A DNA stretch of 23,537 nt from a virus (Duplodnaviria > Heunggongvirae > Uroviricota > Caudoviricetes), in the IMG/VR virus record IMGVR_UViG_2648501437_000035. One strand, given 5' to 3'. The translations under genes were made by a program, and so were the position numbers. Under the pieces are notes generated by a model that did not search any database, was not told the DNA's origin, and worked only from the letters and a program-made list of their open reading frames with translations. How positions within the stretch are numbered: position 1 is the stretch's first letter; the number at the start of each line of letters is the position of its first letter. Positions 3,646 to 4,983 of the stretch are shown here, in pieces.

Positions 3646-4244
3646 GCAACCTCACTTCTGCTGTTTCGCAGGTCTTTAAGTTTCTGTTGATACTCCGCCT
3701 TGATCGCCCTGCACTCTTCGACAGTCCAGCGATAGCGGTTATGGTTTGATTCGATTTCCTCTACTGCTTCCTGCCCGATGCGGCTAATCAGTTCGACGCG
3801 ATACGGAACGAGATTTCCGCTTTTGTGCTGGTTGCACACCACGCATTGCTTGTGAATATTGCGTTCATCAAATCGGAGTTGAGGTGCCGCAGCAGTTGTC
3901 CGGTAATGTCCGGCATCCCACTGAGCAGACGTGAGCGTTCCGCACGAGATACATGGTAAGTCGCGGTCTCTTTCTCTGATGAAGGCGTTTACGGCTTGTT
4001 GGGCTTGTTTAATCCAGTAACTGCGGGGCTTTAAGGCGAGTTTTCGAATCTTCAGTTTATCTTTCTGTTTCTGCTCCTCTCGTCGTAGTTTCTTCTCTGC
4101 TGCTTTTTCCGCTTTTTCGCGTTCTTTACTTCGTCGTTCGAGTGCTATCTTGGTTCCACAAATCTCATTACACCAATATTGATTTTGATATTTTGGTATA
4201 AACCATTCATTGCAACATTTACATTTCCTTCGATAGATTCGCAT
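3642..4244 (-). CDS. ninG: NinG/Rap recombination-promoting nuclease (Holliday-junction resolvase)
   Basis: C-terminal ~170 aa closely match lambda NinG as recalled ([23 protein letters not shown]... CISCGT... [10 protein letters not shown]). Start assigned to ATG at 4244 ([11 protein letters not shown]...); the ORF track extends to 4304. The first ~35 codons are AT-rich and differ from lambda. Confidence 0.8.
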
Positions 4245-4785
4245 AAGTGCTCCTTTCGTTGCCGGAAAAATCACCGTAATACTTATCTCGGGCTTCTTCA
4301 GCAACTAGTACCGCTAACTCCAGATCATCAAAGCATCCGAAGTGTTTACTCTTGCCATGGAATCCTAGCCTAACATTCCATTTTTTCTGTCGTTTGTGCC
4401 AAGTAACCCCTCTGCAACCTGATTTGCTATTCTTTCGGATCCTTATATTTCTTGAATTTTCTATTGGCAGGCATTCTCTTAAATTTTCTGGCCTATTGTC
4501 GGTCCTAATTCCATTAACGTGGTCAATTTGACCAGCAGGCCAACGATTATGAGTTATGTAAAAAACTAAGACGTGAGTTTTATATCTACGCCCATCTATC
4601 ATGATCATTGAATAACCGTTGGAATCAAAAGTTCCAGCAACACTATTTAATGCTATCCTTCCCTGAGTGGGAACTTTCCATCTAAATACCCCGGTAGATT
4701 TATCGAAACTTAGTAACTCAAATATCCTTTTAACAGTTAAATCTTCTCTTTTACGGTTACATCGTCTTCGCGCTGGTTTAGCCAT
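4219..4785 (-). CDS. HNH homing endonuclease (HNH_3 plus AP2-like DNA-binding domain)
   Basis: Motif [18 protein letters not shown] (HNH), then [50 protein letters not shown] (AP2-like). Start assigned to ATG at 4785 (MAKPARRRC...) preceded by GGAGG; the ORF track extends to 4866. AT-rich gene. Confidence 0.8.
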
Positions 4786-4983
4786 CGCCTTCTTCCTCCG
4801 TAATGGTTTTCTGAATTTGGCCACCTGAACAGAGCTCACCAAAGCTATGGATGTCGGTATTTCCACAATACCAAGATGGCGAAAATAACTGCATGATAAG
4901 CCTCAGGGAAAAGGGAAGACACTACCCCCGATAATTCAGAAACAAATCGAAATACATGAACTAAAGAAAAAACCACAACAAAC

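Follow-up and report, generated by a model that had tools for sequence, protein, structure and literature searches.

We analysed a putative homing endonuclease gene (HEG) in a stretch of 23,537 nucleotides (nt) from the Caudoviricetes virus record IMGVR_UViG_2648501437_000035 of IMG/VR, which is referred to below as the window. The early-right operon of a lambdoid prophage, located here on the minus strand, contains an open reading frame (ORF) for an endonuclease of the HNH type, followed by an intact chimeric ninG gene, designated ninG'. The first of them (4219..4785, minus strand) codes for a protein of 188 amino acids (aa), in which an HNH_3 part and, more weakly, an AP2-like part were recognised with Pfam, phrog and a structure model, and which is a putative free-standing homing endonuclease. 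The second, ninG' (3642..4244, minus strand), codes for a junction endonuclease of the rap type (200 aa), assigned by Pfam NinG and phrog_171.

In the list of ORFs the endonuclease stands as 4219-4866, the maximal ORF with a GTG start; its likely start is the ATG at 4785-4783, and its stop is the TAA at 4221-4219. An earlier note on this DNA had the HNH/AP2 ORF begin with MAKPARRRC behind a GGAGG ribosome binding site (RBS), and both elements were read as described, the start at 4785 and the Shine-Dalgarno sequence (SD) at 4799-4795 (4795..4799, minus strand), with a 9-nt spacer between the SD and the ATG. The resemblance of this beginning to the NinG N-terminus, proposed in the same note, turned out to be an identity: the start peptide MAKPARRRC is that of lambda NinG, and the 29 nt counted from the ATG (4785-4757) do not differ from lambda ninG; this 29-mer is unique in the window, with 0.00 occurrences expected by chance. 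The GGAGG region aligns with the end of ninF and the start of ninG of lambda (GAGGAAGAAG), the GAGGAAGAAG upstream of the ATG being identical to lambda as well. The GGAGG is therefore the SD of the resident lambda-type ninG, which now serves the HNH ORF. As delimited by the lambda alignment, the whole island of resident ninF-end/ninG-start DNA, comprising the RBS and the first 29 nt of ninG, covers 4757..4802 (minus strand), and its ninG codons 1-9 are fused in frame to form the 5' end of the HNH ORF.

The explanation that MAKPARRRC is shared by coincidence and that the ORF is an annotation artefact can be given practically no credence. The shared peptide is short, which is all that speaks for it, whereas the identity extends at the DNA level over 29/29 nt and the RBS with 0 expected by chance, the HNH_3 and phrog_99 matches described below are strong, and the ORF is conserved in hundreds of genomes.

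All but two of the HNH homologs begin with M-x(0-8)-(L)T...LRxLLxYDPxTGVFRW; compared with this pattern (M-x(0-8)-LTxxxLRxLLxYDPxTGVFRW), the protein encoded in the window has ~10 additional residues at its N-terminus. As judged from these comparisons, the first nine codons of the HNH ORF originate from ninG and not from the nuclease. At the opposite end the protein carries a C-terminal tail, which is an extension in relation to the homologs (these stop ~10 residues earlier) and which covers the start of ninG'. The HNH gene has no translation initiation region of its own: it is intragenic, and its SD, start codon and nine codons come from the resident ninG. Because of the in-frame fusion to these elements, the HNH protein would be translated from the signals of the invaded gene, within the early-right (cII-O-P-nin-Q) operon. 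A promoter/terminator scan provided no convincing promoter for the HNH gene.

The left junction falls between 4757, the last base identical to lambda, and 4756 (the sequence before the break is ...CGATGTAA), while the right one is found at 4160 (TGTGGAACC), where near-identity to lambda restarts in a stretch of conserved Cys-Gly-Thr codons. The inserted cassette of 596 nt (4161..4756, minus strand), called below also the block, was mapped by comparison of the junctions with lambda and with an HNH-less allele of O157, and stands in for 64 nt of lambda-type ninG. It contains the body of the HNH gene, a new SD and ATG (4244), and a divergent 5' end for ninG, 28 codons long. The new SD, AAGGAG (4250..4255, minus strand), is located inside the 3' end of the HNH ORF, 5 nt from the ATG at 4244; the overlap between the two genes, previously given as about 26 nt, amounts to exactly 26 nt (4219..4244, minus strand) and is read in different frames. 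Alignment with lambda and with HNH-less relatives, which the earlier note had recommended, thus defined the boundaries 4757/4756 and 4160. These are fixed by the existence of HNH-less alleles with nearly identical downstream flanks: between the HNH-less ninF-ninG locus of an O157:H7 strain and the HNH+ locus of strain EDL933, the ninG body is 99.8% and the phosphatase gene 100% identical.

The GC content of the cassette is 37.5% (over 4166-4754); the HNH body has 38.8%, the ninG body 49.0% and the first 99 nt of lambda ninG 50.5%. The substitute ninG 5' end (28 codons; 4161..4244, minus strand) is strongly diverged from lambda in DNA, and the allele that lies beside the HEG is strongly diverged across exactly the replaced 64-84 nt. 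An AT-rich, non-lambda beginning of ninG followed by lambda-like sequence had been reported before, and we found a GC content of 29.1% at 4244-4161 and ~98% identity to lambda from 4160 on; the resident lambda-type ninG body (3642..4160, minus strand) runs with this identity up to the ninG stop. The substitute end keeps C-x2-C ... WC-x3-C and has retained all conserved positions of the Cys/Trp motif at the N-terminus of NinG, and RRxCK-x(0-2)-xC-xEWF-xP-x3-N(Q/E)-xWC-x3-(C/H)G is alignable across the lambda, 933W-type, Emek-type and window alleles. The match of ninG' to Pfam NinG (PF05766) reaches 280.6 bits (8.9e-84, profile positions 5-192/193), and that to phrog_171 has an expectation value (E) of 5.7e-118. 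At the level of sequence, NinG' is intact with its N-terminal Cys/Trp motif preserved, which supports the proposal of a substitute 5' end that would preserve the function of ninG. A 9-nt indel (GAAAAGGCA) near window position ~4105 (ninG codons ~47-50) corresponds to one extra EKA unit; it segregates in HNH+ and HNH-less ninG alleles, giving NinG' of 200 aa or 203 aa.

A reading of the locus as an intron or intein was rejected. A search of the region 3600-5300 with Rfam (E<=1) gave no family matches and, consequently, no group I or II intron; in addition, the locus consists of two separate ORFs, the second of which, ninG', is equipped with an SD and ATG of its own.

The HNH protein belongs, by its sequence, to the HNH_3 family (PF13392; 42.7 bits at a cutoff of 24.8, E 4.2e-11) and matches phrog_99, 'HNH endonuclease', with 1.4e-71. 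In an alignment of 15 homologous sequences residues D88, H89, N101 and N110 are invariant. The AlphaFold2 model has a predicted local distance difference test score (pLDDT) of 87.8, with a well predicted core, coil at residues 1-17 and low confidence at 174-188; strands 86-89 and 102-105, followed by helix 107-113, form a beta-beta-alpha unit modelled with pLDDT above 90. The best fold matches found in the PDB by Foldseek are I-HmuI and AP2 domains, both with a probability of 1.0. I-HmuI (1u3e) is the top match of the nuclease domain (109 columns, 18% identity, E 0.012), and model residues ~122-173 (three strands and a helix) resemble AP2 domains (1gcc with a template modelling score of 0.67, 7wq5 and 7et5; E 0.03-0.1). 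The protein is thus probably a member of the HNH-AP2 family, its AP2 part being recognised mainly from the predicted fold. A sequence search of the PDB returned nothing useful for either the HNH protein or NinG'.

Outside its own clusters of at least 89% identity, the nearest homologs of the HNH protein share 32-47% identity with it. Those with inspected neighbourhoods (P0004, P0007 and P0008) are free-standing genes on unrelated phage contigs, none of them beside ninG; one homolog is placed after a gene of T7-type endonuclease I. The HNH ORF is intact in 57/58 loci, with 11 synonymous and 12 non-synonymous polymorphisms, and the resulting ratio of non-synonymous to synonymous polymorphism (pN/pS) of 0.29 points to purifying selection on the protein.

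The block was detected in 531 of the 5,426 complete E. coli genomes (~10%), including EDL933, O111 strains and other Shiga toxin-producing E. coli (STEC), and is common in pathogenic E. coli; an empty lambda-type site is present in 925 genomes of the same set. The Stx1 (Shiga toxin 1) phages SH2026Stx1 and AU6Stx1 (four records, two each) and a Salmonella Infantis prophage carry it as well, and in these records the two genes are already annotated as 'HNH endonuclease' and 'NinG'. At least two left contexts occur. In that of the window (context A) AT-rich foreign DNA with a gene of 617 aa on the opposite strand replaces ninC-ninF, and homology to lambda on the left side amounts to ~45 nt only; in the other (context B; E. 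coli UMNF18, Salmonella Infantis) an intact ninF leads directly into the island. Context B is probably the ancestral one.

An O157:H7 genome with an HNH-less locus also possesses an HNH+ locus, the HNH, NinG and phosphatase proteins of which are the same as in EDL933. In this genome (NZ_CP038324.1, O157:H7 strain NE1169-1) HNH+ ninG (L183, 1766-3580) and HNH-less lambda-type ninF-ninG (L182, 1411-2856) are found in one chromosome. The HNH+ locus lies inside a defective prophage, beside an IS30 remnant; the phosphatase protein (WP_001028854.1) does not differ between the two loci and their ninG bodies are nearly identical, which suggests recent exchange between co-resident prophages.

Purifying selection, together with a frequency of ~10% in complete E. 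coli genomes, could also be expected of a domesticated nuclease, which would benefit the prophage or its host, for instance by cutting competitor lambdoid phages that enter the cell (exclusion) or by acting in recombination with NinG', instead of being selfish. Retention of the block in the defective O157 prophage beside the IS30 remnant agrees with such a role, as does the position of the HNH gene next to a gene for junction-resolving recombination. We regard this explanation as improbable, because the homologs are scattered over unrelated phages as free-standing genes, a distribution typical of HEGs, and because in the lysogen the early operon is repressed, so that no expression is expected for excluding an incoming phage. 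Moreover, exclusion by cutting of a rival's ninG would be mechanistically the same as homing, and a PADLOC search for known defence systems returned a single motif-level match to ZorE (E 0.007, 24 residues of the HNH motif).

The association between the HNH gene and the substitute 5' end of ninG is strict. HNH-less relatives with the same ninG 5' sequence, named in the earlier note as a finding that would speak against its proposal, did not occur in E. coli genomes, phage records, IMG/VR or metagenomes. Neither the 5,426 complete E. coli genomes nor 50,697 phage records yielded an HNH-less copy of the substitute 5' end, and in both sets a probe reaching from the 3' end of HNH through the substitute end into the ninG body produced matches that were full-length or ran from the right junction onward, and nothing else. 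HNH was present in 55/55 scorable IMG/VR contigs with the substitute end and in 7/7 of the metagenome matches to a codon-degenerate pattern. Among 149 ninG alleles tabulated, 42/42 of the substitute type fell into the HNH class, the number of alleles of the MAKPARR(R/K)C type accompanied by HNH was 0, and all other sampled ninG alleles start with MAKPARR(R/K)CK or MRKVRRRC. Salmonella phage Emek, a candidate HNH-less relative (80.9% over 115 nt), was rejected, as its N-terminus (MRKVRRRCKNEEC...) represents a different allele. Such strict linkage is to be expected on any model, since recombination has no homology between HNH and the substitute end to act on. The data do indicate that the donor lineage has escaped sampling and that derivatives which have cleanly lost the HEG are rare.

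The substitute end was also searched for in potential donors. A codon-degenerate DNA pattern had 0 matches in 185,579 species-representative genomes, a search with 40 aa of protein returned E. coli fragments only, and the best hits of an exhaustive HMMER search with 36 aa showed 58-63% identity over ~33 aa, all of them belonging to other NinG N-terminal types.

In a comparison of 49 loci the nucleotide diversity of the block was 0.001-0.007 per 50-nt bin (0.018 in one bin), while bins of the ninG body showed 0.02-0.2 and upstream bins 0.3-0.4, with an overall diversity of the ninG body of 0.026; the block is thus about 10-fold less diverse than its flanks. Bodies of ninG that accompany HNH differ by 2.6% on average and by 7.8% at most; at a distance of 1% they form 13 clusters, 7 of which are shared with HNH-less alleles, and no differentiation was observed between HNH+ and HNH-less bodies. 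Between the E. coli window and the Salmonella copy there are 4 mismatches in 625 nt of island and block, and 22 in 519 nt of ninG body. The block is a discrete unit that has spread recently, in line with the recent mobile element postulated in the earlier note, and its low diversity in many backgrounds and two genera requires that this spread was fast.

An alternative explanation is a passive mosaic module, which would have arisen by one illegitimate recombination with an AT-rich phage and would have been distributed afterwards by homologous recombination only, its nuclease being inactive or not directed to ninG. The ninF/ninG boundary is a general mosaic joint, where the place directly after ninF can also be taken by a KilAC antirepressor, by hypothetical genes or by a NUMOD4-HNH gene followed by RusA; phages without HNH likewise differ in their NinG 5' ends, O157:H7 harbours HNH+ and HNH-less alleles side by side with no conversion, and a signal of target-site escape is missing. 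We nevertheless find this explanation unlikely, though it has to be taken seriously. The pN/pS of 0.29 and the intact ORF in 57/58 loci argue for selection on the protein, the catalytic residues are conserved, and the block is ~10-fold less diverse than the adjacent DNA although it occurs in many backgrounds and in two genera, for which rapid spread is required.

With regard to the mosaic joint, in E. coli EC31 (L180, 3074-3583) the NUMOD4-HNH gene starts exactly at the expected ninG start after ninF, and RusA replaces NinG, while in E. coli UMNF18 (L181, 1245-1847) a NUMOD4 protein is encoded between ninB and dam. HEG-type genes appear to have a hotspot in the nin region.

We consider it fairly probable that the locus represents a free-standing HNH-AP2 HEG residing in lambda-type ninG (rap), which has captured the translation start of this gene and is accompanied by a replacement 5' end that is probably immune to cleavage; cleavage and homing as such are what we infer. 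The block is present or absent at one site in near-identical alleles, which is one of the features that define HEGs, and both the architecture described above and the recent spread are established. The block could have come from an AT-rich phage in which the HEG was situated just upstream of that phage's own ninG, and one illegitimate in-frame join at ninG nt 29/30 would have produced the start-codon fusion. The cleavage site of the nuclease in HEG-less lambda-type ninG would lie within the replaced 64 nt or close to them, and repair from a HEG+ genome would copy the block in, with homology provided by ninF and 29 nt at the left side and by the ninG body at the right side. The diverged substitute 5' end would make the carriers immune to cleavage, with NinG still functional.

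Several observations weigh against this interpretation. Homologous recombination, which is rife in lambdoid phages, could suffice to move the block among lambdoid prophages, and the combination of a low-diversity block with occurrence in two genera fits gene conversion but does not separate homing from ordinary recombination. The searches described above revealed no donor lineage for HNH, the nearest homolog of which shares 44% identity, or for the substitute 5' end. As to the protein, the Pfam match to AP2 is weak (22.2 bits, under the cutoff of 33.3; 1.8e-4), and so are the Foldseek E-values (0.01-0.1). No target-site escape was seen: the presumed 64-nt target is ordinarily polymorphic in 70 HNH-less lambda-type alleles, among which a TGC/TGT difference in the GC-rich GCCGG stretch of this segment represents the majority allele. 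Since its left homology is limited to ~45 nt, homing from the prophage of the window into lambda-type recipients would be restricted. Finally, an HNH-less lambda-type ninG, apparently intact, is kept in O157:H7 on the same chromosome as the HNH+ locus, and from the coexistence of both alleles it follows that the nuclease does not convert the HNH-less allele in these lysogens. The expectation that HNH+ genomes should lack lambda-type targets was contradicted by the presence of such targets. Co-residence is a weak test, however, because the early operon is repressed in lysogens, and this repression or the defective state of the prophage could explain the coexistence in O157:H7. That the block is at present an actively homing cassette, able to capture a start, replace a 5' end and in this way enter a coding gene without intron or intein, is an idea we put forward only tentatively.

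The genes of the operon follow in the order cII, O, P, Lar-like, NinB, Dam, HNH, NinG', NinI phosphatase and Q, all on the minus strand, with cII (11943-11647, minus strand) as the first, the NinI phosphatase gene at 3645-2980 (minus strand) and Q at 1417-644 (minus strand); cI is on the plus strand. The window does not contain ninH, and ninG' directly overlaps the NinI phosphatase gene (ATGA, 3642-3645), unlike in lambda and in the Salmonella HNH+ locus, where ninH follows ninG. Between the NinI phosphatase gene and Q a gene of LpxR lipid A deacylase (1809-2768, plus strand; Pfam 6.8e-40) is placed on the opposite strand, and the same phosphatase-LpxR neighbourhood occurs at the HNH-less locus of O157:H7 NE1169-1.

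On the other side of the HNH gene, where ninC-ninF normally sit, the 617-aa ORF of context A (5285-7138, plus strand; GC 34%) runs antisense within the early-right operon. Searches of Pfam, NCBIfam and PADLOC gave no match for it, and the only one obtained was to phrog_9230, of unknown function. A counterpart (590 aa, hypothetical) is located at the same position in Stx1 phage SH2026Stx1, and the ORF is probably a moron common in STEC prophages. A tandem hexanucleotide, (AAATAG) x 11.8, with 98% matches (window 4980-5050), lies in the intergenic stretch of 500 nt from which the HNH gene (minus strand) and this ORF (plus strand) diverge. Its copy number is probably variable, since a 1644-nt query over the repeat matches 1614 to 1668 nt in other E. 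coli; two ORFs of 87 aa and 60 aa across the repeat (FLFLFL.../SISISI...) appear spurious.

A close comparison is offered by the free-standing HEGs of T-even phages (SegB, SegF/gene 56 and MobE), with which a diverged part of the adjacent gene is co-converted (PMC2988022, PMC2330249, PMC2790892). The ninG locus shares with them a stand-alone nuclease ORF beside a conserved gene, present or absent among close relatives, and, by analogy, a travelling flank that is diverged from the HEG-less allele and expected to give immunity to cleavage. In contrast to the T-even genes, which are intergenic, use their own start signals and reside in lytic phages, the HEG in ninG is intragenic, belongs to a temperate phage and borrows an SD, an ATG and nine codons; the block also equips the remainder of ninG with a complete translation start that is new and with 28 codons, and its nuclease is putative.

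An N-terminal HNH domain combined with a C-terminal AP2 domain characterises a HEG family described by Magnani et al. 2004, as cited in PMC10448857, and the IPA-HNH HEGs of vibriophage ICP1 belong to the HNH-AP2 family (PMC10448857). The protein of the window probably has the same order of domains, HNH N-terminal and a putative AP2-type domain C-terminal, and its gene, too, is located at a boundary of phage genetic exchange, whereas its identity to any described member is low, and the host gene and the mode of insertion are different. I-HmuI of Bacillus phage SPO1, the nuclease-domain fold of which is like that of the model, is an intron-encoded nickase with different DNA-binding modules. Start-codon capture has a precedent in gene 31 of the P22-like lambdoid phage epsilon34, where an HNH HEG is fused in frame to a resident N-terminus (PMC2629481); that case concerns another operon and gene and another HNH family (with relatives in Lactobacillus phages), with no restoring replacement 5' end reported.

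HEGs are also encountered inside coding regions, with the function of the host gene kept by an unorthodox arrangement, and the locus in ninG resembles such cases in this respect. In phage Aeh1, nrdA is reportedly split by mobE. In phage ShiLan an out-of-frame HNH gene lies inside a methylase gene (PMC11855218). Unlike in these two cases, ninG still encodes a single polypeptide and is not translated across the insert; a co-transferred homologous segment has taken the place of its 5' end, and the old one has been recycled as a leader of the HEG. We found no description of the ninG-HNH arrangement in the searchable literature, and what sets it apart is that three features are combined: the HEG is intragenic, its start is borrowed, and a complete replacement of the 5' end restores the host gene. 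Annotation of both genes, as HNH endonuclease and NinG, is already routine, and the protein is not of a new kind; what is added is the reading of the join and of the spread of the block.

Mosaic evolution of lambdoid and Stx prophages shapes the virulence of enterohaemorrhagic E. coli. To our knowledge, homing endonucleases have been well studied in lytic T4-like phages and hardly at all in lambdoid and Stx prophages. The locus in ninG provides a clean natural case, with boundaries defined to the base, in medically relevant prophages, and because alleles with and without HNH can be obtained with identical flanks, in some cases from one and the same O157:H7 genome, a role of HEGs in exchange at lambdoid mosaic joints can be tested by lambda genetics. 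If the interpretation is true and general, HEGs that capture a translation start would account for a part of the abrupt changes between N-terminal alleles that occur at mosaic joints in genes of temperate phages, and HEGs would be direct drivers of the mosaicism of lambdoid and Stx phages.

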